64,000 nt of DNA. It comes from Dictyostelium discoideum. Lineage: Eukaryota. The DNA lies in NCBI GenBank assembly GCA_000004695.1, contig CM000151.3, positions 2,720,001 through 2,784,000 of the forward strand, given 5' to 3'. The notes beneath the pieces were generated by a model. The model made no database searches. It was not told where the DNA came from and worked only from the letters and a program-made list of their open reading frames with translations. Position 1 is the stretch's first letter; every line of letters starts with the position of its first letter. This document shows positions 2,011-40,155 of the stretch, piece by piece. The translations under genes were made by a program, and so were the position numbers.

Positions 2011-2018
2011 TAACATTA

Positions 2019-4320: not shown

Positions 4321-4529
4321 GTATCTTATCTTTATTTAAATTTTGAACCAATAAGATAAAATAAAAAAATAAAGATGAATTACAAATTGGGGTGTATAAG
4401 ATATAATTTAAATATTTTTATTTTATTATTACTAGCTATTTTTATTTTTATTATTATTATTATTATTATTATTTATTATTATTATTATTATTTATTATTA
4501 TTATTATTATTAATTTAATTACCACCAAA

Positions 4530-4885: not shown

Positions 4886-4944
4886 TTATTATTATTTTAT
4901 TATTATTATTATTATTTTATTTTTATTATTATTATTATTATTAC

Positions 4945-5006
<62 letters not shown>
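4885..5006. repeat. Imperfect (TTA)n microsatellite
   Basis: TTA/ATT run that ends at the stop codon of paralog C (5007). Confidence 0.9.
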
Positions 5007-5010
<4 letters not shown>

Positions 5011-7011: not shown

Positions 7012-7454
7012 TTTTATAAGGTAATATATGTATTATTAAATAAAATGATATTAAAATAAAACAAATAATAGTTTTATATAAAAAAAGTTTAAAAAAAATA
7101 ATAACTAAATAATAAAATAAAATAAATAATAAAAGTAAAAAAAAAAAAGGTGGAAAACAATTATTAAATCTGGTGTAGATTTATAACCACTATTAACTGC
7201 GATATACAATATTAATTAATTTATTTTTAATTTTTTTTTATTATTATTATCTTTATTTAAATTTTGAACCAATCAGATAAAATAAAAAATAAATTAAAAA
7301 ATAAGGATAATTACAAATTGTGGGGGTGTATAACATATAATTTAAATTTTTTTATTTTATTATTACTAACTATTATTATTATTTATTATTATTATTTATT
7401 ATTATTATTATTTATTATTATTATTATTTATTATTATTATTATTATTAATTTAA

Positions 7455-8390
<936 letters not shown>

Positions 8391-11830: not shown

Positions 11831-12162
11831 GTCATTATAATTTTTATTATTTTTTAAAAAAAAAAAAAAAACTACAAAGGAGGTTGATTGGATATTCTAA
11901 AAATCACTAATAATAGTCAGAATTTCTATCATCACTTTTTTTTTTTTAATTCAATTTCACTGAACCAATTTTTGGACTGTGGTTTAGTCGAGATTTTATT
12001 TTTTTTTTTTCAAAAAAAAAAACTAATCAATTTTAATCCAAATTATTGATATTAATTTAATACCATTTGTTTATTTTTTATTTTATTTATTTTTATTTTT
12101 TATTTTTGTTTTTGGAATAGCTCCCCCGATAACTAATTTCACATTAAAGAATCTTGTTTGTG

Positions 12163-12197
<35 letters not shown>

Positions 12198-13818: not shown

Positions 13819-16217
13819 ATGAATAGATTAAGTGAACCATTTAATTATGACAAAGACTTCAGCTTTTCAAATAACCAACCAATAGAATTTTGGGATGAAG
13901 TTGCTAAGAATTTCGTTCATTGGTTTGTATTCAGTAACAATTTTATAATTTTTAAAAGTATTTTTAAATAAAATAATTTTTTAACACATACAATTTAAAA
14001 TTTTAAATAATAATAAAAAAAAAGGGATAGAATGTATGATAAAGTTTATAGTGGTGATGAAATTTATCCAGATTGGTTTAAAGGTGGTGAATTAAATACA
14101 TGTTATAACGTTTTAGATATTCATATTAAAAATCCTGCAAAAAGAGATCAAGATGCATTAATTTATGAATGTCCATTTTTAAAGAAAACAATTAAACTAA
14201 CATACTATCAATTATATGAAAAAGTATGTGAATTTTCAAGAGCACTTTTAAATTTAAATGTTTCAAAAAATGATAACGTTATAATTTATATGGCAAATAC
14301 AGTTGAAGCACCAATTGCAATGTTATCATGTGCTCGTATTGGTGCAACTTATTGTACATTATTTGATGGTTATTCAGTTAAAAGTTTAATAGATCGAATT
14401 GAAACAATTACACCAAAATTGATTATCACAACAAATTATGGTATTTCAAATGATGAAATTATTACATTTACACCAAATTTAAAAGAAGCAATTGAACAAT
14501 CAAATTTTAAACCAAATCATATAATTATACATAATAGAGATGATGGTGATTATAATGCAAATTTAACTTTAAAAACAATAATTGAAACAATACCAACGAT
14601 ACCAAATACATTAAGTTGGTATGATGAAATTAAAAAATTCAAAGAAAATAATCAATCACCATTTTATGATTATATACCAGTAGATTCAAGTCATCCATTA
14701 TATATTCTATATACAAGTGGTACAACTGGTAACGCTAAAGCAGTTGTAAGAAGTAATGGTCCACATTTAGTTGGTGTTAAATATACATGTAGATGTATGT
14801 TTTTAAATGATGAAGTTAATAATAATAATACTAATTCAGATTTAATTAAATTCTTTTCACATTCAAGTATTGGTTGGGTAACATTTCATGGTTTTCTATA
14901 TTCATTATTATCAACAGGGAATATTTTTATAATGTTTGAAGGTGGAATTTGTGAATTAAATCAAATCAAGTATCAACTTTGGAAAGTTATTGAAAAACAT
15001 AAGGTAAACAAATTTTTTATTGGTCCTAAATCAATTAGACTTTTAATTAAAGATGACCCAAATGCAGAGTTTATATTATCAAATTATAATTTATCAAGTT
15101 TAAATACAATTTTAGTTGGTGCTGATGTAGTTGAAAAATCAGTTGCAAATTATATTGAAAACAAATTAAAAAAATCTGCTTCAAATATATATGGTCAAAC
15201 TGAAACTGGTAATATATATTTATTTGATTTTAAAAAATCAAACAGATCCAATGTTAGCAGTAATAGTAACAGTAGTGGTAGTGGTAGTGGTAGTGGTAGT
15301 GGTAGTGGTAGTGGTAGTGGTAGTGGTAGTGGTAGTGGTTGTGGTAGTGGTAGTGGTAGTGGTAGTGGTAGTGGTAGTGGTAGTGGTAGTAGTAGTGGTA
15401 GAGGTAATATAATGGTAATTGGTCAGCCAACTCCTTCTTTAAAATCATTCATACTCTCTGAAGAAGAAGAAGAGGAAGTTTGTTATAATAATAGTGATGT
15501 TGGTGGTGGTAATAGTGTTTGTAGTGGTAGTAGTAGTGGTAGTGATAGTGGTACGAGTAGTGGTAAAAAATCATTAAATAAAAATGAAATTGGAGAGTTG
15601 GTATTTAAATTACCTTTACCACCTGGATTTGCATTAACCTTTTATAAAAATAATGAACAATTTAAAAAATTATTCAAAACAAATTTATTGAATATGGAAA
15701 AAGGTTATTATTATTTTTCAGGTGATTTGGCATTTAAAGACCAAGATAATAATTTTACAATCGTTTCAAGATCAGATGATCAAATAAAAATTAAATCAAA
15801 TAAAGTACAATTAAATACAATTGAAATTTCAGTTTTAAAACATCCATTGGTTTTAGAATGTTGTTGTATTGGTATTAAAGATGTAGAATTCTTGACTGTA
15901 CCAATTGGTATTCTAATATTAAATAATCAAAATAATCAAAATAATCAAAATAATCAAAATAATCAAAATAATAATCCAATTGAATTAAAAGAATTAGAAA
16001 AAGAAATAAATATGATAATTTCAAATGATATTGATAATCATCAATATTAAGAAGAATAATAGTTGTTAAGAAAATACCAAAGACAAAAAGTGGAAAAAAT
16101 ACAAGATCAATATTATCAAAATTATTAAATGATATCAATTTTGTTTTGCCAAGTAATATTAATGACTATGAATTATTTTTAGAAATTAAAGAATCTTTTA
16201 TAAATAAAACAGTTTGA
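13819..16217 (+). CDS. Acetyl-CoA synthetase-like ligase paralog D, divergent, with low-complexity insertions and a C-terminal frameshift (possible pseudogene)
   Basis: Exon 1 is 13819..13922 (donor GTTTGT) and exon 2 runs from 14025. The ORF 14032..16050 (672 aa) carries an (SG)n insertion, acidic and N/Q repeats. The frame shifts by -1 near 16030-16047, and the conserved C-terminus (LRRIIVVKKIPKTKSGK...) continues in the other frame to a stop at about 16217. Confidence 0.6.
15268..15403 (+). repeat. (GGTAGT)n hexanucleotide coding repeat encoding (SG)n
   Basis: About 22 tandem GGTAGT units inside the paralog D coding sequence. Confidence 0.9.
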
Positions 16218-16455: not shown

Positions 16456-16487
<32 letters not shown>

Positions 16488-16551
16488 CTTTCTTCTTCCA
16501 TATTCAATAGTTTTTTTTTTTTTTATTATTATTAATACTTATATTAAAAGA

Positions 16552-18602
16552 ATGTATAGACTAAGCGAACCATTTGATTATTTAAATGATAAAACTTATG
16601 CAAATAATGAGCCAGAAGCTTTTTGGGATGAAGTTGCAAAGAAATTAATTAAATGGTAATTATTTGTTTATTTTTTTTTATATATTAATAATTACTAATT
16701 AAAATAACAATTTTTTTTTTTAAAATAAAATAAAAAAGGGATAAAATGTATGATAAAGTTTATAGTGGTGATGAAATGTATCCAGATTGGTTTAAAGGTG
16801 GTGAATTAAATACATGTTATAATGTTTTAGATAGACAAGTTCAAAATCCATTAAAAAGAGATCAAGATGCTTTAATTTATGAATGTCCATATTTAAAGAA
16901 AACTGTTAAATTAACATATTATCAATTATATGAAAAAGTATGTGAATTTTCAAGAGTACTTTTAAATTTAAATATTTCAAAAAATGATAATGTTTTAATT
17001 TATATGGCAAATACATTGGAGCCTTTAATTGCAATGTTATCATGTGCTCGTATTGGTGCAACTCATTGCACAATATTCGATGGTTATTCGGTTAAAAGTT
17101 TAATAGATAGAATTGAAACAATTACACCAAAATTAATAATTACAACAAACTATGGTATATTAAATGATGAAATCATTACATTTACACCAAATTTAAAAGA
17201 TGCAATTGAACAATCAACTTTTAAACCAAGTAATGTAATTACTTTATTTAGAAATGATATTACAAGCGAATCAGATTTAAAGAAAGTAAAAGATATACCA
17301 ACGATACCAAATACATTAAGTTGGTATGATGAAATTAAAAAATTCAAGGAAAATAATCAATCACCATTTTATGAATATGTTCCAGTAGAATCAAGTCATC
17401 CATTATACATAATATATACAAGTGGTACAACTGGAAATTCTAAAGCAGTTGTAAGAAGTAATGGTTCACATATGGTTTGTTTGAATTACTTTAACCGATA
17501 TATTTCAGAAAATAATCAAAGTACAACATTATTGACAACTTCAAGTGTTGGATGGGTATCATTTCATGGTTTCCTATATGGTATGTTGTCATTTGGATCT
17601 ACATTTGTAATGTATGAAGGTGGTATTATAAAAAATAAACATATTGAAGTTGACCTTTGGAATACCATTGAAAAACATAAAGTAACACATGCATTATCAT
17701 TGGCAAGCGCTATTAGATACCTTATTAAAACTGATCCTGAAGGAACAATCCTTCGTTCAAAGTATGATTTATCAAATTTAAAAGAAATATGGATTGGTGG
17801 TGAACCAATTGAAGAATCAATTTCAGAATACATTGAACAAAAGTTAAAAATAAAATCAACAAGGGGATATGGTCAAACTGAAATTGGTATAACTTATTTA
17901 TATTGTTTTGGTCATATTAATATCCCATACTACGCAACTGGTTTACCATCAATTTTCATTAGACCATCAATATTTTCAGACGATGGTAAAGAATTAGGTG
18001 TTAACGAAATTGGTGAAATCGCATTCAAATTACCAATGCCACCAAGTTTTGCAACTACATTTTATAAAAATGATGAAAAGTTTAAACAATTATTTTCAAA
18101 ATTTCCAGGTTACTACAATCCTGGTGATTTAGGTTTTAAAGATGAAAATGGATTTTATACAATTGTTTCAAGATCAGATGATCAAATTAAAATCAGTGGT
18201 AATAAAGTTCAATTAAATACAATTGAAACATCAATACTAAAACATCCATCAGTTTTAGAATGTTGTTCAATTGGTATTAACGATCCAACTTGTTATAGTG
18301 TACCAATAGCCTTATTAGTTTTAAAACAACAACAACAACAGCAACAAGATCAGTCAACTCGACAAATAGATTTAAATAAATTACACTCTGAAATTAATAA
18401 TATCATTACACAAGATATTGCATCATTAGCAGTCTTAAGAAAAATTGTAATTGTTAATCAATTACCAAAAACAAAAACTGGTAAAATTCCAAGACCAATT
18501 ATATCAAAGTTTTTAAATGATTCAAATTTTCTATTACCCGATAACATCAGTAATGTTGAAATATTTTATGAAATCAAAGAATTATATACGAAAATTAATT
18601 AG
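16552..18602 (+). CDS. Acetyl-CoA synthetase-like acyl-CoA ligase, paralog E (intact; 2 exons)
   Basis: Exon 1 is 16552..16655 (MYRLSEPFDYLNDKTYANNEPEAFWDEVAKKLIKW), the intron is 16656..16738 (GTAATT...AAAAAG), and exon 2 is 16739..18602 (ORF 16746..18602, 618 aa). Confidence 0.85.
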
Positions 18603-18730
18603 TCTTTATAAAAAACAAGTTTTTTTTTTTTAAAACCATTTATTGTTTTTTTTTTTTTATTTGTGTTTAAAATTTTTTTATTTTTTTAATTTTTTTTAAA
18701 ATCTTGTTTTTTTTATTATTAAACAGCTCA

Positions 18731-18772: not shown

Positions 18773-18883
18773 TTTTTTTTTTTTTTTTTTTTTTTTTTTC
18801 AAATCTTGTTTTATTTTATTTATTATTTTTAATTGTTTTTTATTACAATTATATAAATTATTCATTTAATTTTAACCTAAAAT

Positions 18884-20904
18884 ATGTTTAAACTTAGTAA
18901 TCCTTTTAATTATTTAAATGATTTTAATTATGCAAATTCTTATCCTGAGGCTTTTTGGGATGAAGTTGCAAAAAAGAATGTTTTTTGGTAAGATAATCCA
19001 TTTTTCTACAAAAAAAAAAATTAAAAACAAAAACTAATATATTTAAAAGGGATAAAATGTATGATAAAGTTTATAGTGGTGATGAAATGTATCCAGATTG
19101 GTTTAAAGGTGGTGAATTAAATACATGTTATAATGTTTTAGATATTCAAGTTCAAAATCCATTAAAAAGAGATCAAGACGCTTTAATTTATGAATGTCCA
19201 TATTTAAAGAAAACTATAAAATTAACATATTATCAATTATATGAAAAAGTATGTGAATTTTCAAGAGTACTTTTAAATTTAAATATTTCAAAAAATGATA
19301 ATGTTTTAATTTATATGGCAAATACTTTAGAACCATTAATTGCAATGTTATCATGTGCTCGTATTGGTGCAACTCATTGTGTATTATTCGATGGTTATTC
19401 AGTTAAAAGTTTAATAGATAGAATTGAAACAATTACACCAAAATTAATAATTACAACAAACTATGGTATTTTTAATGATGAAATTATTACATTTACACCA
19501 AATTTAAAAGATGCAATTGAATTATCAACTTTTAAACCAAGTAATGTAATTACTTTATTTAGAAATGATATTACAAGCGAATCAGATTTAAAGAAAGTAA
19601 AAGATATACCAACGATACCAAATACATTAAGTTGGTATGATGAAATTAAAAAATTCAAGGAAAATAATCAATCACCATTTTATGAATATGTTCCAGTAGA
19701 ATCAAGTCATCCACTATATATTATTTATTCAAGTGGTACAACTGGTAATGCTAAAGCAGTTGTAAGAAGTAATGGTCCAAATTTAGTTTGTATGAATTAC
19801 TTTGACAGATATATTTCAGAAAAATATGAATGTACAACATTATTGACAACTTCAAGTGTCGGATGGGTATCATTTCATGGTTTCCTATATGGTATGTTGT
19901 CATTTGGATCTACATTTGTAATGTATGAAGGTGGTATTATTAAAAACAAACATATTGAAGTTGACTTTTGGAATACCATTGAAAAACATAAAGCGACACA
20001 TACATTATCATTGGCAAACACTATTAGATACTTTATTAAAACTGATCCTGAAGGAACAATTATACGTTCAAAGTATGATTTATCAAATTTAAAAGAAATA
20101 TGGGTCGGAGGTGAAGTAATTGAAGAATCAATCCCAGAATACATTGAAAAAAAGTTAAAAATAAAACCAACAAGGGGATATGGTCAAACTGAAATTGGTA
20201 TAGCTTATTTATATTGTTTTGATCATATTAATATCCCATACTACGCAACTGGTTTACCATCAATTTTCATTAGACCATCAATATTTTCAGACGATGGTAA
20301 AGAATTAGGTGTTAACGAAATTGGTGAAATCGCATTTAAATTACCAATGCCACCAAGTTTTGCAACTACATTATATAAAAATGATGAAAAGTTTAAACAA
20401 TTATTTTCAAAATTTCCAGGTTACTACAATCCTGGTGATTTAGGTTTTAAAGATGAAAATGGATTCTATACAATTGTTTCAAGATCAGATGATCAAATTA
20501 AAATCAGTGGTAATAAAGTTCAATTAAATACAATTGAAACATCAATACTAAAACATCCATTAGTTTTAGAATGTTGTTCAATTGGTATTAACGATCCAAC
20601 TTGTTATAGTGTACCAATAGCCTTATTGGTTTTAAAACAACTACAACAACAAGATCAATCAATTCAACAAATTGATTTAAATAAATTACAAAATGAAATA
20701 AATTATATAATTAAACAAGATATTGAATCATTAGCGGTCTTAAGAAAAATTGTAATCGTTAATCAATTACCAAAAACAAAAACTGGTAAAATTCCAAGAC
20801 CAATTATATCAAAGTTTTTAAATGACTCGAATTTTCAATTACCTGATAATGTCAATAACGTTGAAATATTTTATGAAATCAAAGAATTATATATGAAAAA
20901 TTAA
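18884..20904 (+). CDS. Acetyl-CoA synthetase-like acyl-CoA ligase, paralog F (intact; 2 exons)
   Basis: Exon 1 is 18884..18987, the intron is 18988..19049 (GTAAGA...AG), and exon 2 is 19050..20904 (615 aa ORF). Confidence 0.85.
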
Positions 20905-21496
20905 TCTTTATAAAAAATTGACAGTTTTTTTTTTAATCATTTATTGTCATTTTTTTTTGTTTTTAAAATTATTTTTAAAAATTCACAAAAAATAATAACA
21001 TTAGCAAATAAAATAATTATTAAAATTTTATTTATATATCATATTTTGTTTTGTCTTTAAATTTAAATATTCATATATTTTAATTTTTTACTCTACAATA
21101 ACCAATGTTTTTAGTCATTTTTTTTTTATAATAATTTTCTATAATTTTTTAAAGATATTTTTCCTTTTTTTATTTAATATTGCAGTATTAGTAATCTAAG
21201 AAAAATATTTGGAAAGAAAAAAATTGAGATCCAAATGTAAAAATTCCTTTTAATCTGTTTTATCATTAAGAAAAGTTTTATATTTTATATAATAAAAATA
21301 TTTCTTAATTACAAAACAAATTAAAAGTGTTTGTGGTAATTTGTTTTTTACACCCCAATTACTTTTTTTTTTGGTTATTTTTATTTTTTTTATTTTATTA
21401 TAATTATAATTTTTAATTTTTTTTTTTAATACAATTATATAAATTATTAATATTTAATTTTAAATTTAATTTTTTTTTTAAATTAATAAAATAAGA

Positions 21497-23040
21497 ATGT
21501 TTAAACTTAGTGATCCTTTTAATAATTTAAATGATTTCAATTATGCAAATTCTTTTCCTGAGGCTTTTTGGGATGAAGTTGCAAAAAAGAATGTTTTTTG
21601 GTAAGATAATACATTTTTTTCTTTATATAAAAAATATAAACAAAAACTAATATTTTTAAAAGGGATAAAATGTATGATAAAGTTTATAGTGGTGATGAAA
21701 TGTATCCAGATTGGTTTAAAGGGTGAATTAAATACATGTTATAATTTATATGAAACAAGTCTAAAAATAAAGATAAACAAGTTCAAAATCCATTAAAAAG
21801 AGATCAAGATGCATTAATTTATGAATGTCCATATTTAAAGAAAACTGTAAAATTAACATATCATCAATTATATGAAAAAGTATGTGAATTTTCAAGAGTA
21901 CTTTTAAATTTAAATATTTCAAAAAATGATAATGTTTTAATATATATGGCAAATACGGTTGAAGCACCAATTGCAATTTTATCATGTACTCATAATGGTG
22001 CAACTCATTGTGTATTATTCGATGGTTATTCAGTTAAAAGTTTAATAGATAGAATTGAAACAATTACACCAAAATTAATAATTACAACAAACTATGGTAT
22101 TTTTAATGATGGAATCATTAATTTCATCACAAATTTAAAAGAATCTATTGAATTATCAACTTTTAAACCAAGTAATGTAATTACTTTATTTAGAAATGAT
22201 ATTACAAGCGAATCAGATTTAAAGAAAGTAAAAGATATACCAACGATACCAAATACATTAAGTTGGTATGATGAAAATAAAAAACTTAAAGAAAATAATC
22301 AATCACCATTTTATGAATATGTACCAGTAGAATCAAGTCATCCACTATATATTATTTATTCAAGTGGTACAACTGGTAATGCTAAAGCAGTTGTAAGAAG
22401 TAATGGTCCAAATTTAGTTTGTATGAATTACTTTAACAGATATATTTCAGAAAAATATGAAAATATAAAATTATTTACATTTTCAAATGTCGGATGGATA
22501 TCATTTCATGGTTCCCTATAAGGCTTGTTGTCATCTGGATCTACATTTATAATGTATGAAGGTGGTATTATAAAAAACAAATATATTGAAGTTGACTTTT
22601 GGAATACCATTGAAAAACATAAAGTGACACATGCATTGTCATTGGCAAGCACTATTAGATACTTTATTAAAACTGATCCTGAAGGAACAATTATACGTTC
22701 AAAGTATGGTTTATCAAATTTAAAAGAATTTATGGTTGGAGGTGAAGTAATTGAAGAATCAATCCCAGAATACATTGAAAAAAAGTTTTAAAGCAAAAAC
22801 AAGATCAATCAACTCAATTGATTTAAATAAATTACAATCTGAAATTAATAATATCATTACACAAGATATTGAATCGTTAGCAGTCTTGAGAAAAATTGTA
22901 GTTGTTAATCAATTACCAAAAACCAAAGCTGGTAAAACTCCAAGACCAAAGTTTTTAATGATTCAAATTTTCAATTTCCAGATAATATCATTGACATTGA
23001 AATATTTTATGAAATTAAAGAATTATATATGAAAAGTTAA
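21497..23040 (+). pseudogene. Acetyl-CoA synthetase-like ligase paralog G, heavily disrupted
   Basis: Exon 1 is 21497..21600 and is intact. Exon 2 has a frameshift at about 21720 (KG*), an in-frame stop at about 22519 and an internal deletion of ~160 codons near 22790. Only fragmentary ORFs remain (21946..22521, 22525..22791, 22751..23032). Confidence 0.8.
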
Positions 23041-23083: not shown

Positions 23084-23123
<40 letters not shown>

Positions 23124-23504
23124 AAATTTTGAATCGAATTAATTTACAAAATATATGTTAAATGATATAAAATAGATTCAAATATTGTGAATAAAATTGG
23201 AAAATTTTAAAATGATTATAATAATTGGTCAATTAATGAAAATTGTATTTAATAAAAAACTGTTAAATAATAAAACAGTTTAAAGAAGTGTTTGTGGTTA
23301 TTTTTTGTTTTTTAACACCCCCATTTATTTTTATTTATTTTTTATCTTTTATTTTTTAAAATATATATCATTATTTAAATCTTTTATTTTTTATATATAA
23401 TTAAATTTTTTAATTTTAATTTATATTATATTTAATTTTAAAATTAATTTTTAAAATTTTTTTTTTTTTTTTTTTATAATTTATTTAATTAATTAAAAAT
23501 TAAT

Positions 23505-25522
23505 ATGTATAAGCTTAGTGATCCTTTTAATTATGTAAATGACAGTAATTATGCAAATTCTTATCCTGAGGATTTTTGGGATGAAGTGGCAAAAAAGCAT
23601 GTTTTTTGGTAAATATATCTTTTTTTTTTTTCTTTATAAAAAAAGAGATTTTAATATTAAAACAAAAACTAATATTTTTAAAATAAAGGGATAAAATGTA
23701 TGATAAAGTTTATAGTGGTGATGAAATTTATCCAGATTGGTTTAAAGGTGGTGAATTAAATACATGTTATAATTTATTAGACATTCATACAAAAAATCCT
23801 ACTAAAAGAGATCAAGATGCAATAATTTATGAATGTCCATTTTTAAAGAAAACTGAGAAATTAACATATTATCAATTATATGAAAAAGTATGTGAATTTT
23901 CAAGAGTACTTTTAAATTTAAATGTTTCAAAAAATGATGTTGTTTTAATTTATATGTCAAATACATTAGAACCATTAATTGCAATGTTATCATGTGCTCG
24001 TATTGGCGCAACTCATTGTACAATAATCGATGGTTATTCAGTTAAAAGTTTAATAGATAGAATCGAAACAATTACACCAGAATTAATAATTACAACAAAC
24101 TATGGTATATCAAATGATGAAATCATTACATTTACACCAAATTTAAAAGAAGCAATTGAATTATCAACTTTTAAACCAAGTAATGTAATAACTTTATTTA
24201 GAAATGAAGTTTTGGATGAAACAAATTTAAAAAAAGTAAATGATATACCAACGATACCAAATACATTAAGTTGGTATGATGAAATTAAAAAACTTAAAGA
24301 AAATAATCAATCACCATTTTATGAATATGTACCAGTAGAATCAAGTCATTCATTATATATACTATATACAAGTGGTACAACTGGTAATGCTAAAGCTGTT
24401 GTTAGAAGTAATGGTCCACATTTGGTTAGTATTAGATATTATAGATTCCGTAAAGAATCAGATATACCTCAAATTGTATTTTCATATTCAAATATTGGGT
24501 GGGTATCATTTCACGGTTTCTTTTATGGTTTACTATCTGTAGGGAATACATTTGTAATGTATGAAGGTGGTATTATAAATAACAAACATATTGAAGATGA
24601 TTTATGGAAAACAATTGTAAAACATAAAGTAACACATACATTTCCATCCCCATCTGTATTTAGATACCTTATTAAAACTGATCCTGAAGGAAAAATCATC
24701 AGTTCAAAGTATGATTTATCAAATTTAGAAGAAATATGGTGTGGTAGTGAAGTAATTGAAGAATCAATTCCAGAATACATTGAACAAAAGTTAAAAATAA
24801 AATGTTTAAGAGTATTTGGTCAAAGTGAAATTGGCATAACTTCATTTATTAGTGTTCATGCTTTAAATATGCCTTATAAAGCCACTGGCATACCATCAAT
24901 TTTCATAAAACCATCAATACTTTCAGAAGAAGGTAAAGTTTTGAATTCAAATGAAATTGGTTTTGTTGCAATTAAACTACCAATGCCACCAGGTTTTGCA
25001 ACTACATATTATAAAAATGATGAAAAGTTTAAACAATTATTTTCTAAATTCCCAGGTTATTATAATACCGGTGATTTAGGTTATAAAGATCAAAGAGGAT
25101 TTTATACAATTGTTTCGAGATCAGATGATCAAATTAAAATCGGTTATAAAAAAGTTCAATTAAATACAATTGAAACGTCAATTTTAAAACACCCATCAGT
25201 TTTAGAATGTTGTTCGATTGGTATTTATGATCCAGTTATTCGTAGTGTACCAATTGGTGTATTAGTATTAAAAGAAAATCAATCAATTGATTTAATTAAA
25301 TTACAAAATGAAATTAATAATATCATTACACAAGATATTGAATCATGTGCAGTCTTAAGAAAAATTTTAATTGTTAACCAATTACCAAAAACAAAAGTTG
25401 GTAAAATTCCAAGACTAATTTTGTCAAATTTATTAAATGATTCAAATTATCAACTACCCCATAATGTCAGTGACACTGAAATATTTTATGAAATCAAAGA
25501 ATTATATATGAAAAATTTATAG
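23505..25522 (+). CDS. Acetyl-CoA synthetase-like acyl-CoA ligase, paralog H (intact; 2 exons)
   Basis: Exon 1 is 23505..23608, the intron is 23609..23688 (GTAAAT...AAAG), and exon 2 is 23689..25522 (608 aa ORF). Confidence 0.85.
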
Positions 25523-26224
25523 TTAGTAAACTTAATTTAAAAATTTGTTTTTATTTTTTGAAAAAAAAATAATAAAAAAAAAAAAATTTGAATTATTTAT
25601 TTTTTAAATTTAATAAATAAAAAAATAAAAAAATTTAATTATATTTTTTTTTTTTTTATTGGTTTGATAAAAAATAGTGTTTTACCTTTTGATTACATTA
25701 GAAGTTTTGTTTTAAAAAAAAGGTTAAAAATTCAAAAAAAATAATAAGGACGGATATAAATTATTGTTTATTTCCTTTAATGCATAAACTGTGATTAATC
25801 AATATTAAATAAAAAAAATAATAATAATATAAATATTGTTTGTAATGATTAAAATTTTTTTTTTTTTTAATAAGTTTCAAATGTTGAAAAATCTTTAAAA
25901 AAAAAATTAATTTTAATCGTAACAAGCACTTTAAAAAAATATTTACTTATTATTAGCATTTTTAACAAACAACATAAAAATAAAAATTTTAATTAAAATA
26001 AATTAAATTAAATTAAAAAACACACTGGGGTGTGTAGAATTTCTAAAATATTTTAGTGGAAATAATTTAATTTATTTTAATTAAAATTTTTTATTTTTAA
26101 TTATATAAAAATATTATCTAACAAACAATAAGAATTTTTTTTTTTTTTTTTTTTTTTCATTAGAGTTTGTGCACTATTATATTTAATTTTTCATTTTCAT
26201 TTTATTAAATAATTAATAACAAAT

Positions 26225-28240
26225 ATGTATAAACTTAGTGATCCTTTTGATTATTTAAATGATAATAGTTATTCAAAGTCTAATCCAGAAGCTTTTTGGG
26301 ATGAGGTTGCTAAAAAGAATGTTTTTTGGTAAATATATATCTTTTTTTTTCTTTGTTAAAAAAGAGATATTAAAATTAAAACAAAAACTAAGATTTTTAA
26401 AAATAAAAGGGATAAAATGTATGATAAAGTTTATAGTGGCGATGAAATATATCCAGATTGGTTTAAAGGTGGTGAATTAAATACATGTTATAATTTATTA
26501 GATATTCATATTAAAAATCCTGCTAAAAGAGATCAAGATGCATTAATTTATGAATGTCCATTTTTAAAGAAAACAATTAAATTAACATATTATCAATTAT
26601 ATGAAAAAGTATGTGAATTTTCAAGAGTACTTTTAAATTTAAATGTTTCAAAAAATGATAATGTTTTAATATTTATGGCAAATACATTAGAACCATTGAT
26701 TGCAATGTTATCATGTGCTCGTATTGGTGCAACTCAATGTACATTATTCGATGGTTCTTCGGTTAAAAGTTTAATAGATAGAATCGAAACAATTACACCA
26801 AAATTAATAATTACAACAAATTATGGTATTTTAAATGACGAAATCATTACATTTACACCAAATTTAAAAGAAGCAATTGAATTATCAACTTTTAAACCAA
26901 GTAATGTAATAACTTTATTTAGAAATGAAGTTTTGGATGAAACAAAATTAAAAAAAGTTCAAACTATTCCAACTATTCCAAATACATTAAGTTGGTATGA
27001 TGAAATTAAAAAATTAAAAGAAAATAATCAATCACCATTTTATGAATATGTACCAGTAGAATCAAGTCATCCATTATATATACTTTATACAAGTGGCACA
27101 ACTGGTAATACCAAAGCTGTTGTAAGAAGTAATGGTCCGCATATGGTTGGTATTAAATACTATACATTCCGTAAAGAATCAGATATACCTCAAATTGTAT
27201 TTTCACATACAAATATTGGGTGGGTATCATTTCATGGTTTCTTTTATGGTTTATTATCTGGAGGAAACACCTTGGTAATGTATGAAGGTGGTATTATAAA
27301 AAACAAACATATGGAAGATGATTTATGGATAGCTATTGTAAAACATAAAGTAACACATACGTTTCCATCCCCATCTGTATTTAGATACCTTATTAAAACT
27401 GATCCTGAAGGAACAATTGTACGTTCTAAGTATGATTTATCAAATTTAAAAGAAATATGGTGTGGTGGTGAAGTAATTGAAGAATCAATTCCAGAATATA
27501 TTGAACAAAAGTTAAAAATAAAATGTTTAAGAGTATTTGGTCAAAGTGAAATTGGCGTAACTTCATTTATTAGTGTCCATGCTTTAAATATTCCTTATAG
27601 AGCCACTGGCGTACCATCAATTTATATTAGACCATCAATACTTTCAGAAGAAGGTGAAGTTTTGAATTCAAATGAAATTGGTTTAGTTGCATTTAAACTA
27701 CCAATGCCTCCCAGTTTTACAATTACATTTTATAAAAATGATGAAAAGTTTAAACAACTATTTACAAGATTTCCAGGTTACTACGATTCAGGTGATTTAG
27801 GTTATAAAGATCAAAGAGGATTTTATACAATTGTTTCAAGATCAGATGATCAAATTAAGATAGGTTTTAATAAAATTCAATTAAATACAATTGACACATC
27901 AATTTTAAAACATCCATCAGTTTTAGAATGTTGTTCTATTGGTATTTTAAGTCCAGATTGCCATACTGCACCGATTGGTATATTGGTATTAAAAGAAAAT
28001 CCATCAATTGATTTAAATAAATTACAAAATGAAATTAATAATATCATCACGCAAGATATTGAATCACTGGCAGTCTTAAAAAAAATAATAGTTATTAACC
28101 AATTACCAAAAACAAAAGTTGGTAAAATTCCAAGACAAATTTTATCAAATTTATTAAATGATCCAAACTATCAATTACCAGACGATGTCAATGACTCTGA
28201 ACTATTTTATAAAATCAAAGAGTTATATATGAAAAATTAA
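26225..28240 (+). CDS. Acetyl-CoA synthetase-like acyl-CoA ligase, paralog I (intact; 2 exons)
   Basis: Exon 1 is 26225..26328, the intron is 26329..26409, and exon 2 is 26410..28240 (607 aa ORF). It is about 98% identical to paralog J. Confidence 0.85.
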
Positions 28241-28577
28241 TTTTAGCAAAGTTTTTGTAAATTGTTTTTGTTCTAAAAAAAAAAAAAAAAAAAAAGAGTA
28301 ATAATAATTAAAAAAGAAAATAATTTGGATTATTTTTTTTTAATTTAATAAAAGTAGGAGATATAAAAAATAAATAAAAAATATAAAAAAAAAATAAAAA
28401 AATTTAAACTTTTAAATAATATGTTTGAAATTATTTGATTTTTTTTTTTTTTTGACTAAAAATAGTGTTTTACTATGGGACAAAAAGAGTTTTTTTAATC
28501 CACCTCCATCCTTATTGTTTTGTTTAAAGGGGTTTTCTCCCGTTGTAATTTAATTAATTTTAAATTAAATTTAATTT

Positions 28578-28578
28578 T

Positions 28579-28633
<55 letters not shown>
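28578..28633. repeat. Poly(A) tract of about 56 nt; its duplicate is at 33317..33372
   Basis: Uninterrupted A run inside the duplicated 3' flank of paralogs I and J. Confidence 0.95.
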
Positions 28634-28637
<4 letters not shown>

Positions 28638-28800
28638 TATTTAATTTTACAAAAAGTTTCATTATAATATTTAAAAACCAAAATATAAAAAAAATGTCAC
28701 ACAAATTCCCCACTTAAAATATTATTATAATTTCAAAAATATTTAATTAAAAAAGAAATATATAATAAATAAGAATAAAATAAAAATAATATAATTTGGT

Positions 28801-29130
28801 AGTTAAAATGGATTCTAACTTTATCGGTTGAGTTGAAAGAAGTCGCACAAATTTTGTAACTTAAAAAAGAACTAAGGTTTCTATTTCAACCTCTGTTTTT
28901 AATTTTTTCCAAAATATTAAAACCGCAATAAGGCTACGACATCAATAAAATTGAAATATTTGCTTATTGTGAATTCTCACACGGTATATTGTGTAACACA
29001 CACCACCCAGGTTTAACTTCATGAACGCACCGTCAATAGGAATTCACTACAGCAGCGTAGTCAAATTAAATAATAAAATTCACTACGCTACTGTAGTGAA
29101 ATTTTATGGAAAATTCCCTCCAACAATAAT
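28801..29130 (+). mobile_element. Short (~330 bp) copy of an unassigned repetitive element
   Basis: 28801..28990 matches 33535..33725 and the reverse complement of 62150..62330. It is followed by a hairpin-forming segment (aattcactacagcagcgtagtc ... cactacgctactgtagtgaaatt) and then by a repeat of flank 28310-28500 at 29150-29350. Confidence 0.5.
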
Positions 29131-29786
29131 AATTAAAAAAGAAAATAATTTGGATTATTTTTTTTTTAATTTAATAAAAGTAGGAGATATAAAAAATATA
29201 TAAAAAATATAAAAAAAAAATAAAAAAATTTAAACTTTTAAATAATATGTTTGAAATTATTTGATTTTTTTTTTTTTGATTTTTTTTTTTTAATTATTTT
29301 TTTTTTTTGACTAAAAATAGTGTTTTACTATGGGACGAAAAGAGTTTTTTTAATCCACCTCCTTCCTTATTATTTTACATATATCCAAATTATTAATTAA
29401 TTATCCATATTTTTTGGATTCTATCCTTTTTTTATTTTTTATCACCACTAAAGAGATATTCCTTAAAAAAAAAAAAAAATAGAGAAAATAAGGAAAAATA
29501 GATAAATTTTTTTAAATTTTTTTTTCTTAAAAAACTGCAAATAAAAATAAAAACTAGACTGTTTGGTTATTAAAATGAATATTTATTTATATTTTTAAGA
29601 TTTTTTTTTATTTTTTTTTTTTCAAAAGATATGAAAAAATTTTGATCAGTAAAAAAAAATTTAACAATTTAATTTTAAAAAAATAATTATAAAATCCCAA
29701 TCTAAGCAATGAGAAAGATATAAAATAATTTGTTTTGTTTTTAATTCAAACAATGAGAAAGATATAAAATGATTCTATTTATATTT

Positions 29787-29824
<38 letters not shown>

Positions 29825-30962
29825 CTTTGGACTCCATTTTATCTAGGCATTTAATTAGACAAAACTTAAATAAAGATAATTACAAAAAATATATGAATGA
29901 AAATTTTTAAAACCCTATAGATATTGGGCAGATATGATAATTTCAAACCTTTTTTTAATTTAAAAAAAAAAAAAAAAAAATATCTTGCACGGGAAAAAAA
30001 AACCTAGTAAAATGTTAAATTATTTAAAAAAAAATAAAAATTCTTATATTTTAATATTTTTTATTTAAATATTTATTGTACACCCATTATTTTTTATCAT
30101 TTTATTATAGTTTTTAATAATCTACAATATATTAAACTATAGTTTAATGTTTTAAAAAATGAGAAATTTCAATAGTATTATTTCCTATTAATTGTTGTAT
30201 ATTATTAAATTATAGTTTTATGTTTTAAAAAATGAGAAATTACAATAGTAAAATTTCTCACAATATGGTAAATCAATAAATTTTTTATAATTTAATGACA
30301 AATTAATATTCAATTCTAATTAAATAATATAAGATTTTTTCAATTTTTAATTTATTAAAATATATTTTTTTTATGGCCAGATTCTTTTTAATTATTTTAT
30401 GATAATTTAATAATAAAGTGTGATTAATTATTAATTAGAAATTGATATTAGTTTATTAAAAATTTTATTATATAAAAATATTATCTAACAAACAATAAGA
30501 ATTTTTTTTTTTTTCATTAGAATTTTTGCACTTTCCCAAAAAATTCTCCATATTATTTTATTTATTTATATTTTTTATTGCGACATTAATTTCTTATTTT
30601 TTTTTATTATGAATTATGGTATATGTAAAAAAAAGTAGTAGGAATAAATTTGGAGATTTTAAATAAACCTTTTTCATGTATCTTTTAAATAATCTTAATT
30701 GAAATTATTAGTGGACATATTTTTTTTATTTAATTTTATTCATTTCATAATTCTAGTTTACTCACTTTTTGTAATTTAGGATATTCATAATATGAATAAT
30801 TTTTAATGACGGGTGCAATAAAATTTATTTTTATGTATAAATTTTTTTTTTCCATGATTTAGTATTATTAATTTTTTTTTTCTTTTTTTTTTTTAATATT
30901 TCATTTGTATTTTATTATATTTAATTTTTCATTTTCATTTTATTAAATAATTAAAAACAAAT

Positions 30963-32978
30963 ATGTATAAACTTAGTGATCCTTTTGATTATTTAAATGA
31001 TAACAGTTATTCAAATTCTAATCCAGAAGCTTTTTGGGATGAGGTTGCTAAAAAGAATGTTTTTTGGTAAATATATATCTTTTTTTTTCTTTGTTAAAAA
31101 AGAGATATTAAAATTAAAACAAAAACTAAGATTTTTAAAAATAAAAGGGAAAAAATGTATGATAAAGTTTATAGTGGCGATGAAATATATCCAGATTGGT
31201 TTAAAGGTGGTGAATTAAATACATGTTATAATTTATTAGACATTCATATTAAAAATCCTGCTAAAAGAGATCAAGATGCATTAATTTATGAATGTCCATA
31301 TTTAAAGAAAACAATTAAATTAACCTATTATCAATTATATGAAAAAGTATGTAAATTTTCAAGAGTTCTTTTAAACTTAAATGTTTCAAAAAATGATAAT
31401 GTTTTAATATTTATGGCAAATACATTAGAACCATTAATTGCAATGTTATCATGTGCTCGTATTGGTGCAACTCAATGTACATTATTCGATGGTTATTCGG
31501 TTAAAAGTTTAATAGATAGAATCGAAACAATTACACCAAAATTAATAATTACAACAAATTATGGTATTTTTAATGACGAAATCATTACATTTACACCAAA
31601 TTTAAAAGAAGCAATTGAATTATCAACTTTTAAACCAAGTAATGTAATTACTCTATTTAGAAATGAAGTTTTGGATGAAACAAAATTAAAAAAAGTTCAA
31701 AATATTCCAACTATTCCAAATACATTAAGTTGGTATGATGAAATTAAAAAATTAAAAGAAAATAATCAATCACCATTTTATGAATATGTACCAGTAGAAT
31801 CAAGTCATCCATTATATATACTTTATACAAGTGGCACAACTGGTAATACCAAAGCTGTTGTAAGAAGTAATGGTCCGCATATGGTTGGTATTAAATACTA
31901 TACATTCCGTAAAGAATCAGATATACCTCAAATTGTATTTTCAAATGCAAATATTGGGTGGGTATCATTTCATGGTTTCTTTTATGGTTTATTATCTGGA
32001 GGAAACACCTTGGTAATGTATGAAGGTGGTATTATAAAAAACGAACATATAGAAGATGATTTATGGATAGCTATTGTAAAACATAAAGTAACACATACAT
32101 TTCCATCCCCATCTGTATTTAGATACCTTATTAAAACTGATCCTGAAGGAACAATTGTACGTTCTAAGTATGATTTATCAAATTTAAAAGAAATATGGTG
32201 TGGCGGTGAAGTAATTGAAGAATCAATTCCAGAATACATTGAACAAAAGTTAAAAATAAAATGTTTAAGAGTATACGGTCAAAGTGAAATTGGCGTAACT
32301 TCATTTATTAGTGTCCATGCTTTAAATATTCCTTATAGAGCCACTGGCGTACCATCAATTTATATTAGACCATCAATACTTTCAGAAGAAGGTGAAGTTT
32401 TGAATTCAAATGAAATTGGTTTAGTTGCATTTAAACTACCAATGCCACCCAGTTTTGCAATTACATTTTATAAAAATGATGAAAAGTTTAAACAACTATT
32501 TACAAGGTTTCCAGGTTACTATGATTCAGGTGATTTAGGTTATATAGATCAAAGAGGATTTTATACAATTGTTTCAAGATCAGATGATCAAATTAAGATA
32601 AGTTGTAATAAAATTCAATTAAATACAATTGACACATCAATTTTAAAACATCCATCAGTTTTAGAATGTTGTTCTATTGGTATTTTAAGTCCAGATTGTC
32701 GTACTGCACCGATTGGTATATTGGTATTAAAAGAAAATCCATCAATTGATTTAAATAAATTACAAAATGAAATTAATAATATCATCACGCAAGATATTGA
32801 ATCACTGGCAGTCTTAAAAAAAATAATAGTTATTAACCAATTACCAAAAACAAAAGTTGGTAAAATTCCAAGACAAATTTTATCAAATTTATTAAATGAT
32901 CCAAACTATCAATTACCAGACGATGTCAATGACTCTGAACTATTTTATAAAATCAAAGAGTTATATATGAAAAATTAA
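30963..32978 (+). CDS. Acetyl-CoA synthetase-like acyl-CoA ligase, paralog J (intact; 2 exons)
   Basis: Exon 1 is 30963..31066, the intron is 31067..31147, and exon 2 is 31148..32978 (607 aa ORF). Confidence 0.85.
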
Positions 32979-33316
32979 TTTTAGCAAAGTTTTTGTAAAT
33001 TGTTTTTGTTCTAAAAAAAAAAAAAAAAAAAAAGAGTAATAATAATTAAAAAAGAAAATAATTTGGATTATTTTTTTTTAATTTAATAAAAGTAGGAGAT
33101 ATAAAAAATAAATAAAAAATATAAAAAAAAAATAAAAAAATTTAAACTTTTAAATAATATGTTTGAAATTATTTGATTTTTTTTTTTTTTTGACTAAAAA
33201 TAGTGTTTTACTATGGGACAAAAAGAGTTTTTTTAATCCACCTCCATCCTTATTGTTTTGTTTAAAGGGGTTTTCTCCCGTTGTAATTTAATTAATTTTA
33301 AATTAAATTTAATTTT

Positions 33317-33376
<60 letters not shown>

Positions 33377-33534
33377 TTTTAATTTCACAAAAGTTTTCAT
33401 AATAGATATTAGATACCAGATATTAAAAAAATGTCACACAAAATCACCACATAAAATAATAATATAAATTCAAAAATAATTTAATTAAAAAGAAAATAAT
33501 AATTAATTAGAATAAAATTAAAATAATATAATAT

Positions 33535-34005
33535 TGTAGTTTAAATTGGATCTAACCCTATCGGCTGAGGTTGAAGTAGTTCGCTCAAATCTGTTAACTA
33601 TAAAAAGAACTAGGTTTCTAATTCAACCTCAGTAATAAATATATACAAAATAATAAAAACGCGATAGGGCTACGGTCATCAATTAAATTGAATATATTGC
33701 TAATGATGAATCTCAACAACAGGATAATGAGGAACAACAACAACAACCACAGGTATCAACATTCAATGAACAGCAACGTCAAATAAGGGAACAGCAGCAG
33801 GTAATAGATAAACAAAATCAACTTCTTCAACAACACATTCAATTAATAAATCAACAATCTCAACAACAATTAAATAACCATTCGACACCACCATCATCAC
33901 CCAACATTACAACACCAATAACTTCAGCAGCAATAACCAATACAATAAAGAAATCATTAGGAAAAACTAACACTGATGACACCGACCACCAGTTGTTACA
34001 ATTAA
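33535..34005 (+). mobile_element. Fragment of a repetitive element: terminal structure plus the start of a Q/N-rich ORF
   Basis: 33535..33725 is the terminal region and contains the internal inverted repeat gaggttgaa...ttcaacctc. 33720..34005 encodes ...QQRQIREQQQVIDKQNQLLQQHIQLINQQSQQQLNNHSTPPSSPNITTPITSAAITNTIKKSLGKTN. The same element occurs inverted at 61540..62330. Confidence 0.55.
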
Positions 34006-34217
34006 AATGAATATTATTTATATTTTTAAGATTTTTTTTATTTTTTTTTTTTCAAAAGATATGAAAAAATTTTGATCAGTAAAAAAAAATTTAACAATTT
34101 AATTTTAAAAAAATAATTATAAAAATCCCAATCTAAGCAATGAGAAAGATATAAAATAATTTGTTTTGTTTTTTATTCAAACAATGAGAAAGATATAAAA
34201 TGATTTTATTTATTTTT

Positions 34218-34249
<32 letters not shown>

Positions 34250-34938
34250 CTTTGGACTCCATTTTATCTAGGCATTTAATTAGACAAAACTTAAATAAAG
34301 ATAATTACAAAAAATATATGAATGGAAATTTTTAAAACCCTAGAGATATTGGGCAGATATGATAGTTTCAAACCTTTTTTTATTTTAAAAAAAAAAAAAA
34401 AAAAATATCTTTACAATAAAAATTGTAAAAAAAAAAATATATATAGTGAAAAAAATCAAAAAAGCACTATTAAAAAGAAGAATTCAATTCACTTAACTTA
34501 AAATCAAAATCAAAATAAATATATAATTGAACACTTTTTTAATTAATTTAAAAAAAAAAAAAATTAAAAAAAAAAAAAAAAATACTAGTATACTCACTTA
34601 CATATATTTATATTTGTAAATTATATCGCAATTATTTTATTCCTTTTCAAATAATTATCAGTGCAAAAAAATAATGATAATAAAAATGAAAAAAAAAATT
34701 TACCACATCTTAGTCCCATATTTAACTAGTTTTTAATTAAATTCAACACAACTATGATTTTGAAAAAAAAAAAATAAAAAATAAAAAAAAAAAATGTATT
34801 ACTTTTTTTTTAAACAATTTTATTTATTTATTTTTATTTATTTTTCTTATTATATATCTCTATAATCTATATTATTTTTTTTTTTTTTTTTTTTTTTCTA
34901 TATATCTCTAATTTTTTTTTTAAATAACAATAATAATA

Positions 34939-35304
34939 ATGAAAACTGAAAAAGGTGCTTACAAATGTACCCAAAAATTTTGCAGCATGTCTTATGGTTA
35001 CGCTAGCTCACTCTCAAGACATATTACCAAGAAACATGCAGGTGCTGTAAGAAATAAATCTGCTTCAAATAAACCAATGGTAATGTGCCGCCACTCTGAT
35101 TGCACTTTCCTCTGCCACACAAAACACCGTCGTAGACATGAAAAGTGTCACAAAAATCTTTGCAAAGACCAAGAATGTCCCGCTTGTACCAATCCAGATC
35201 AATTTAAAAGAGGTAGAAAACCTAAACATTTGGTAGATCCTAAAAATTCCATAATTTCCTCTAGACAGTCGAACTACTGTTCAATTCAAAATTTGTTTAA
35301 ATAA
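34939..35304 (+). CDS. Small C2H2-type zinc-finger-like protein
   Basis: 121 aa ORF. YKCTQKFCSMSYGYASSLSRHITKKH fits C-x4-C-x12-H-x4-H, and a second Cys/His cluster is CRHSDCTFLCHTKHRRRHEKCH. The C-terminus is basic. Confidence 0.5.
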   Translation: MKTEKGAYKCTQKFCSMSYGYASSLSRHITKKHAGAVRNKSASNKPMVMCRHSDCTFLCHTKHRRRHEKCHKNLCKDQECPACTNPDQFKRGRKPKHLVDPKNSIISSRQSNYCSIQNLFK

Positions 35305-35313
35305 AAAAAATCG

Positions 35314-35353
<40 letters not shown>

Positions 35354-35471
35354 ATAATAATAATAATATTAAAGATTAAAAATTAAAAAAAAATAAAAAT
35401 AAACCTGTTTTTTAAAGATGGAAATAACAAAACAAATTAATTTTTTTGAATTTATTATTTTTTATTCAAAA

Positions 35472-35508
<37 letters not shown>

Positions 35509-36319
35509 CTTGGGTTTTAAGGAAAAAAAAAAAAATAAATAAAAAAAATTTTATTTTTTATTTCGTACAAGTGTTAATTATTATTAAAAAATTAAAAAAT
35601 TAATGTTTTCAAATCGCTCAATGATCAAAACACGTTAGTACTATTTTTAACCAAAAACCCAAAAACCCAAAAAAAAAAAAAACGAATTATAGTCAAGCAA
35701 CATGTAATGAAAAATTATAACCATAATTAAAACTCAACAATTAGAAAAAAAAAAAAAAAAGAAAAAAAAAAAAAAAAAAAAAATTATTCTTTACAATAAA
35801 CACAATAATTTTAAAAAAAAATTTAAATATTTTGGAGTAAAGCGAAAAAAAAAAATACGAATCGTATTATTATTTTAATCTTTCATTAAACAATTAATTT
35901 TATTTTTTTTTTTTTTTTTTTATTTTAAAAATGTTTTTTTATTTTGTGATTGGAGGCAAAATAAATTAAAAAAAAAAAAAAATTAAAAAAAAAAAAAATT
36001 AAAAAAATATCTTTTGCTTTTAAAAAAAAACGGCAAAATCCATTGATTAAATCCTCAAAACTCAGGAAATCTTACTACAGTGCATTTTCACATAAAAAAT
36101 GTCCTAGTTAATAAAGAAATTAAATTTGGATAATGTTTTTTTTTTTTTCTTTTCTCTATTTTTTAAAAGATTTTTGAATATTTAAAAAAAAGCTTTTTTT
36201 TTTTTTCTTTTTATTTTTGTTTTTTTAAAAATTTAAAAAAAAAAAAAAAGAAAAAGAAAAAGAAAAAAATAATAATAACAATAATAATAAAAAAAAAGAA
36301 AAAAAAAAAAAAATTAAAT

Positions 36320-40155
<3,836 letters not shown>

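Follow-up and report, generated by a model that had tools for sequence, protein, structure and literature searches.

A young tandem duplication of an acyl-CoA synthetase-like gene in the NC4 lineage of Dictyostelium discoideum and a probable reference error in its 3′ flank

Introduction

Two neighbouring genes at the end of a gene array on chromosome 2 of Dictyostelium discoideum AX4 are nearly identical, and the same repeat element appears to follow both of them. This raises the question of how and when the pair arose, and whether the element was already in place at that time. The stretch analysed here, hereafter the window, comprises 64,000 nucleotides of the forward strand (GCA_000004695.1, CM000151.3, positions 2,720,001 to 2,784,000) with ~20% G+C and long homopolymers, and all coordinates refer to it unless another locus is named. 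The genes in question, paralogs I and J, are the last two members of an array of ACS/PrpE-like AMP-binding genes. A first-pass annotation made from the sequence alone had described them as a very recent segmental duplication of ~3.9 kb, in which a shared element, inserted before the duplication, had decayed differently in the two copies. As detailed below, the locus is likely to reflect an ordinary lineage-specific tandem duplication plus a block of erroneous reference sequence; for the duplication taken alone, we consider the case virtually certain.

Results

Two tandem copies in AX4 and one copy in diverged isolates

Comparison of the window with itself by BLAST yielded matches between 26095-26147 and 30463-30514 (98%), between 26133-29036 and 30870-33782 (95.6% over 2924 columns) and between 29569-29986 and 34001-34411 (96.2%), the last of which corresponds to a distal flank that had been placed correctly before. 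The two units are adjacent, collinear direct repeats, both on the plus strand, and comprise a gene plus flanks:

26095-29990, plus strand: duplication unit I, the upstream copy, collinear with 30463-34415; its upstream context is still the ancestral one, namely the 3′ flank of the preceding paralog H.
30463-34415, plus strand: duplication unit J, the downstream copy; it keeps the ancestral downstream context, with wild-strain-like sequence after 34415.
26225-28240, plus strand: gene of paralog I (exon 1 26225-26328, intron 26329-26409, exon 2 26410-28240), 644 amino acids.
30963-32978, plus strand: gene of paralog J (exon 1 30963-31066, intron 31067-31147, exon 2 31148-32978), 644 amino acids.
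29569-29990, plus strand: distal flank D of I, 98.1% identical to 34001-34415 (8 mismatches in 413 bases, 5 indels).
34001-34415, plus strand: distal flank D of J, matching D of copy I.
29991-30462, plus strand: junction spacer S (472 bp), unique, with a short internal direct repeat.

The left edge of unit I is fuzzy (26045-26095), and the homology on this side starts at ~26083-26095 and 30452-30463, respectively, where the sequence is AT-rich and contains a 10-bp indel. The right end of both units lies after (A)19TATCTTG, from where J continues as in wild strains and I runs into spacer S. The last ~100-150 bp of D in copy I also align to wild-strain sequence downstream of the single gene.

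By exact-protein look-up, the locus was then retrieved from four assemblies in PRJNA1300491, the data set of PMC12745789, for which AX2-214 and nine wild isolates were sequenced with Nanopore plus Illumina. L001 (GCA_054859355.1), L002 (GCA_054859385.1) and L005 (GCA_054859205.1) represent diverged wild isolates of the discoideum clade. Each contains one terminal array gene, followed by the same genes of 121 and ~1300 residues. L003 (GCA_054883475.1) is a long-read assembly nearly identical to AX4, with only a handful of sites differing from the window over 22 kb, and is probably the AX2-214 assembly, as judged from this near-identity and the strain list of PMC12745789. It carries both I and J, as well as spacer S and a 380-bp segment located upstream of J, the latter two at 100% identity. 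Since L003 holds both copies, the duplication is not an assembly artefact and predates the split between AX2 and AX3/AX4. Being common to both laboratory lineages, it is older than the domestication of strain NC4. Thus, copy number varies between strains, with two copies in AX4 and L003 and one in the three diverged wild genomes.

In exon 2, I and J differ from each other by 1.7% and each of them by 6.6-7.2% from the single wild gene, and H pairs with the preceding wild gene. Moreover, no other pair in the array is as similar as I and J; the next ones are 94.2% and 91.6% identical, in line with their earlier description as its youngest members. These comparisons indicate that the duplication is specific to the lineage of AX4, because the three wild genomes are single-copy and I and J are closest to each other. 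The upstream neighbour of copy I and the downstream neighbour of copy J correspond in position and spacing to the ancestral ones seen in the wild strains, as expected for a tandem duplication. A BLAST comparison with the wild strains under relaxed scoring returned mainly low-complexity noise and does not enter into these conclusions.

The 380-bp segment upstream of J has counterparts in two of the wild genomes, which lie upstream of the single gene:

30531-30912, plus strand: ancestral upstream segment, kept in J and lost in I; 78-80% identical to L001 9750-9935 and L002 9711-9934.

The first-pass annotation had located an indel of ~380 bp at this very position and assigned it to the sequence upstream of J. 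The location holds; the event itself is a deletion upstream of I, because the segment aligns upstream of the single wild gene and is thus ancestral. With the deletion placed correctly, the upstream region that had aligned at only "85%" resolves into two well-matching pieces.

Both copies diverged evenly and appear to be constrained

For all divergence figures the block 28306-29032, the origin of which is discussed below, was excluded. The coding sequences of I and J differ at 33 of 1935 positions (1.7%; identity 98.3%), with 15 synonymous and 17 non-synonymous codon differences. In noncoding sequence we counted 16 mismatches in 904 bases (1.77%; identity 98.2%) and 12 indel events, which agrees with a noncoding identity of more than 95% as assumed for a recent event. 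As the divergence is uniform across the unit, these data point to a single duplication, after which two functional genes evolved independently and under constraint.

The open reading frames (ORFs) of 607 amino acids share 592 residues. The gene models of 644 amino acids, both intact and without stops, differ in 17 codons, corresponding to 97-98% protein identity, and each is interrupted by a single 81-bp intron, where several introns had been proposed. The exchanges S/Y at ORF position 113 and K/I in the motif DLGY[K/I]DQ are present as annotated. An exchange T/N expected near position 254 is not found there; T/N occurs at ORF position 183, and H/N and T/A at 264-265.

Between I and J, the synonymous divergence dS is 0.041 and the non-synonymous divergence dN is 0.011, resulting in a dN/dS ratio of 0.27 (Fisher p = 4.5e-4 against equality). 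Since the 644-residue ORFs are intact and the ratio is below 1, both copies appear to be under purifying selection and to represent functional, non-pseudogene duplicates. Derived changes are balanced, with 14 on I and 15 on J. The dS to the wild co-ortholog is 0.19-0.215, so that the value for I and J is about one fifth of it; between the own copies of two tropical isolates dS is 0.054. The event is young but does not date from the laboratory era, because a dS of 0.041 compares with ~0.2 to the wild co-ortholog. The wording "very recent" can therefore be kept in the sense of comparatively young; given this dS and the presence of the pair in both laboratory lineages, it does not hold for a time after the domestication of NC4.

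A block behind paralog I is absent from an independent assembly

The 3′ flanks of the two genes contain further parts, some of which are found in one copy only:

28241-28305, plus strand: 3′ flank "a" of I, with 0 of 65 bases different from J; present in L003.
28306-29032, plus strand: suspect block of 727 bp with three parts: 28306-28511 repeats the 3′ flank of J, 28512-28636 is the beginning of repeat E including A55, and 28637-29032 is a noisy version of E.
29033-29125, plus strand: what is left of a 108-bp palindrome inserted in copy I only; its right arm is complete, and its left arm lacks 15 bases and is garbled in the AX4 reference.
29126-29373, plus strand: R2, the true 3′ flank of copy I; it shares 98.1% identity with J 33044-33259 (2 indels) and in L003 comes directly after the palindrome.
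33250-34001, plus strand: repeat E behind J, containing A55 (33318-33372) and a truncated Q-rich ORF; compared with other copies it has two internal deletions.
61651-62540, minus strand: another copy of repeat E, used as outgroup.

Sequence 28306-29032 of the window is absent from L003, which is otherwise nearly identical. At this point (12083-12190), L003 contains a 108-bp near-perfect palindrome, which reads TGTTGTAGGGAATTTTC...GAAAATTCCCTACAACA, lies within an AAT repeat at the start of the 3′ flank, is flanked by ATAAT and is directly followed by the sequence of the window from 29126 onward. As single-stranded DNA it folds into a hairpin of -50 kcal/mol (z = -18.8). The left boundary of the palindrome is exactly where the block begins, and the block rejoins 16 bases inside the palindrome. 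The left terminal 17-mer of the palindrome is found nowhere in the window; therefore, L003 is no simple deletion derivative of the AX4 sequence. The palindrome junction in the window reads TCAATAGGAATTCAC, which looks like a blend of TCAAATAAGGGAAC of J and TCAATAAAATTTCAC of the palindrome, and five mismatches to L003 are located in 29039-29062.

The first 331 of 331 bases of the block are identical to the flank of J, including a poly(A) tract of exactly 55 residues in both reference copies, for which A56-58 had been given before; in L003 the tract of J is A41. From the first base after A55, the identity of the block to J drops to 74-80%, so that the elements behind I and J are not nearly identical. 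When two other E copies were used as outgroups, 85 substitutions proved unique to the I side and 1 to the J side over ~365 aligned bases. Mismatched I bases equal the next J base in 62% and the preceding one in 47% of cases, as compared with 24-42% at offsets of two to four bases, against the high background expected in a sequence of 80% A+T. In addition, one-base drop-outs from AA doublets rise toward the end of the block, the length of which (727 bp) is about that of one Sanger read.

Judged from these signatures, window 28306-29032 is quite probably a misplaced low-quality Sanger read of J in the AX4 reference, because the block is clean up to the homopolymer and then turns into phase-shifted noise with base loss at ~700 bp, as does a Sanger read through A55. 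The strong hairpin is a plausible cause of a coverage gap at this site. Because the block is absent from the independent assembly, the genuinely shared unit would comprise ~2.9 kb of alignable sequence, and not ~3.9 kb. In the corrected arrangement, the gene of copy I would be followed by the 65-bp flank a, the 108-bp palindrome, R2 (29126-29373), segment Y (29374-29568) and D (29569-29990), and copy J would consist of the 380-bp ancestral segment, the gene, a, R (to 33249), E (33250-34001) and D (34001-34415). The "extra internal repeat" listed for copy I is real and corresponds to R2.

A further discrepancy was found at 34453-34498, where the window and L003 differ at 14 positions and L003 equals the wild outgroup at the diagnostic ones. 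This pattern suggests additional base errors in the AX4 reference and lends independent support to the notion of local errors in it.

Two side observations concern the same comparison. Around this site, in 34383-34591 after the A19 tract, ~20 bases differ between the AX4 reference and L003. Homopolymer lengths also differ between AX4 and L003 at 33318-33372 (A55 and A41, respectively), 35314-35351, 35476-35483 and 35755-35761, which could reflect real instability or a sequencing artefact in either assembly.

Shared inheritance of the element or repair from paralog J

Two other explanations retain the block as real sequence. According to the first, E was inserted before the duplication and inherited by both units, the copy behind I decayed, and AX4 is correct, the 727 bp having been lost from the sister strain. 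In favour of this, the block is present in the AX4 reference, and the E sequences behind I and J share derived deletions relative to two other E copies, which indicates a common origin. However, no neutral process fits 85 changes unique to I and 1 unique to J over ~365 bases when the neighbouring 331 bases show no difference at all and divergence elsewhere in the unit is 1.8%. The two laboratory lineages share a recent ancestor and are almost identical here otherwise, and a deletion in L003 cannot recreate the left terminus of the palindrome that is missing from the window. Likewise, an identical A55 in both copies is unlikely, given the 12 indel events in 904 bases of other noncoding DNA. An insertion predating the duplication, with different decay of the element in the two units, is thus improbable, and the most distinctive claim of the first-pass annotation, a shared embedded element that dates the insertion, most likely rests on an error of the reference sequence.

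The second explanation, to which we assign a slightly lower probability still, holds that the palindrome behind I broke in the AX3/AX4 lineage and was repaired by copying paralog J, 4.7 kb away. Such repair could have proceeded by synthesis-dependent annealing or break-induced replication, highly error-prone (~20% errors) or with template switching after A55, until the end was rejoined inside the palindrome; these details are doubtful to the same degree. Long palindromes are fragile sites and break-induced replication is mutagenic. The exact start of the block at the palindrome boundary, the rejoining within it, and the collinearity with the J flank up to the homopolymer would fit such an event. 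Yet ~23% substitutions and many 1-bp deletions are orders of magnitude above the mutagenesis reported for break-induced replication, and the error pattern, with next-base miscalls and loss of doublet bases toward the end, resembles base-calling after homopolymer slippage, and the block is as long as one Sanger read. The E copies at window 61651-62540 and in locus L004 on another chromosome were compared as possible closer donors of the noisy version, and all of them are more distant from it than J. If this explanation were true, Dictyostelium would here provide a natural example of error-prone repair that was induced by a palindrome and templated by a paralog.

The sequences flanking D: repeat E and segment Y

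Repeat E occurs behind J, at 61651-62540 and at L004 5443-6327, with common 5′ and 3′ limits, and a further copy underlies DDB_G0271474. Dispersed and low in copy number, the repeat measures ~0.75-0.9 kb and has an internal poly(A). In J it is 752 bp long, starts upstream of the poly(A) and contains it, and is therefore larger than the ~470 bp assigned to it before. Its ORF fragment matches the hypothetical proteins P0124-P0126, and the ORF is annotated as the hypothetical proteins ACTFIT_010762 and DDB_G0271474 (P0125). A Pfam search of these Q-rich proteins gave no domain, and the repeat has no recognisable transposition protein, although several dispersed copies with common ends are present, as for a transposable element. 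E is absent from this site in the wild strains. At the corresponding position, copy I contains unrelated sequence:

29374-29568, plus strand: segment Y, I-specific, 195 bp, at the position held by E in J; it matches only itself and L003.

If the block is a misplaced read, E is specific to J, and the element is probably not shared. The sequences do not tell apart whether E replaced Y in J or the reverse; either way, an element inherited by both copies is no longer supported. Y was also considered as a remnant of E. Only an A-rich stretch aligns, and 2-5 of 200 Markov-resampled versions of Y score as high, so that this relationship is not convincing.

The palindrome forms a near-perfect hairpin, and an ATAAT-like duplication is seen at its insertion site in L003, but the site itself is an AAT repeat. 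Only partial relatives were found, at L004 11726-11825 and 4923-4962. The palindrome may belong to a small family in Dictyostelium that is similar to miniature inverted-repeat transposable elements (MITEs).

Gene conversion

A first global alignment of I and J had a mosaic appearance: identity was ~85% immediately 5′ of the start codon and ~98% across the gene, rose to 100% for ~610 bp, a stretch that takes in the last 216 coding bases and runs through the poly(A), fell abruptly to ~80% in the element and reached 97-99% in the distal flank. As a sign of gene conversion, this mosaic of the MAFFT/BLAST alignment was rejected, since it disappeared once the 380-bp deletion had been realigned and the suspect block removed. 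The longest run free of differences (343 bp) is not significant in a permutation test on the spacing of differences (P = 0.09), and windowed distances of I and J to H and the wild genes reveal no switch to another paralog, so that the check for gene conversion suggested by the first-pass annotation returned no signal. That the duplication is old and its high identity due to repeated conversion between I and J is the least probable reading, since, despite the raw mosaic and a mild clustering of polarised changes (the first seven are all derived in J), three wild genomes are single-copy, I and J are equidistant from that gene, and the noncoding flanks are as similar as the gene itself.

The gene family and the rest of the array

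The window represents D. discoideum AX4 chromosome 2. The spliced product of 26225-28240 (paralog I) is 100% identical to DDB_G0273229, also recorded as DDB_G0273689. Paralog J (30963-32978) falls into the DDB_G0273365/DDB_G0273687 cluster, and the preceding paralog H corresponds to DDB_G0273305. The genes of this region carry double DDB_G identifiers because AX4 contains a large laboratory duplication of this part of chromosome 2. A literature search on five gene identifiers retrieved no papers mentioning them.

Pfam searches of the I and J proteins yielded ACAS_N (E 1e-6), AMP-binding (~1e-50) and AMP-binding_C (~1e-12), all above the gathering cut-offs. The proteins share 33-36% identity with bacterial proteins named propionyl-CoA synthetase, and the nearest solved structures are 5gxd_A (E 8e-89) and acetyl-CoA synthetases such as 1ry2 and 1pg4. 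The motifs TSGTTG...K and ...GK are present. By this three-domain architecture, I and J are classified as acyl-CoA synthetase-like (ACS/PrpE-like) members of the ANL superfamily, with a predicted activity of this kind.

Self-comparison of the window revealed ~ten full or partial copies of the ACS/PrpE-like AMP-binding gene on both strands. Apart from I and J, they are located at 156-890, 2020-3991 and 5021-6884 (minus strand) and at 14001-14786, 16465-18657, 18777-20958, 21375-22787 and 23431-25583 (plus strand), include truncated copies and form two head-to-head blocks of opposite orientation. Older duplicate pairs among them are 94.2% and 91.6% identical. The wild strains vary in which array members are intact; L002, for example, has a split copy at 4178-6190. 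Upstream of H, L003 and AX4 differ by a 9-bp indel at 23119-23127 and an adjacent GG/AA at 23199-23200, the only differences in 12 kb besides one homopolymer length. Short tandemly repetitive sequences are found at 4884-5033, 8022-8335, 37085-37243 and 63499-63764 on both strands, with 85-96% identity between sites.

A tRNA scan of the whole window detected zero tRNAs, and there is therefore no link to tRNA-targeting retroelements. An Rfam search of 25000-36500 at a permissive threshold gave only two sub-threshold, miRNA-like chance matches.

Discussion

Taken together, these results suggest the following course of events. A single tandem direct duplication took place among the ancestors of D. 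discoideum NC4, from which AX2 and AX4 derive. It included the last ACS/PrpE-like gene of the array, its 5′ flank over ~130 bp and its 3′ flank over ~0.7-1 kb. Copy I, on the upstream side, retained the old upstream neighbourhood and the downstream copy J the old downstream one, with the 472-bp unique spacer at their junction. Most likely, the duplication arose by unequal exchange or replication slippage between short AT-rich low-complexity tracts, with filler DNA at the junction, which we infer from the sequence context. Thereafter, the copies diverged evenly by ~1.7-1.8% (dS 0.04), both apparently under purifying selection. Small structural changes followed: 380 bp were deleted upstream of I, a palindrome of 108 bp was inserted just behind it, and at one site of the 3′ flank J has the 752-bp E where I has 195 bp of unrelated sequence. 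The apparently decayed E behind I would stem from one Sanger read of J that was placed into copy I at the palindrome, where the hairpin would have caused a gap in coverage; after A55 its base calls would have degenerated.

Several points weigh against this account. The assignment of the block to an artefact depends on one independent assembly and on sequence-level signatures, and a Nanopore assembly can also mishandle palindromes and homopolymers. The neighbour-base comparison has a high background in DNA this rich in A+T, and the equation of L003 with AX2-214 is itself drawn from near-identity and the strain list of the paper. Spacer S has no other match in the window or the fetched loci except L003, at 100%. 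At the E/Y site, no clean empty site or target-site duplication was found for E in J, because I has 195 bp of unrelated sequence there, so that the difference is not a simple insertion. Finally, the outgroups are three diverged wild isolates, none of them close to NC4, which bears on the frequency of the duplication in the population.

Biologically, the finding is minor: I and J are a textbook case of a young tandem duplicate, and their gene family has already been annotated in this model organism. As a dated pair that varies between strains (two copies in the NC4 lineage, one in diverged isolates), with both copies under constraint, it nevertheless adds one data point on gene-family turnover in Dictyostelium. 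Also of practical concern is the probable 727-bp error, with nearby base errors, flagged here in the AX4 chromosome 2 reference beside DDB_G0273229. It matters for the design of primers, knock-out arms and promoter or terminator constructs, as well as for any repeat history inferred from the reference alone.

The locus can be compared with several known systems. The same region contains the ~750-kb chromosome 2 duplication of AX3/AX4, which gave every gene here a second DDB_G identifier; it is noted in PMC12745789. That duplication is of laboratory origin and spans hundreds of kilobases in identical copies, whereas the I/J units measure ~4 kb and diverge by 1.7%. Unlike it, the I/J pair is also present in an assembly without the large duplication. 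The discrepancy behind I resembles Sanger-era reference errors at homopolymers and hairpins: it coincides exactly with a 108-bp hairpin, its length is roughly that of one read, and its noise starts after a 55-base homopolymer, the likeness here being one of sequence signatures. With bacterial PrpE/ACS enzymes of the ANL superfamily, I and J share the same three Pfam domains over their full length, whereas the hinge region SGHR of the canonical enzymes is replaced by GFNK in I and SCNK in J, and the Dictyostelium family has grown to ~ten tandem copies at this locus. Finally, like other duplicates in D. discoideum arrays, I and J are in direct orientation, comprise one gene plus short flanks, lie in AT-rich low-complexity intergenic DNA and vary in copy number between diverged isolates. 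They differ from the other tandem pairs in the window (16734-18657 and 19045-20958 at 94.2%; 1916-4116 and 4917-7101 at 91.6%) in being the youngest, at 98.3% identity, and in having a 472-bp unique junction spacer and several small copy-specific indels.

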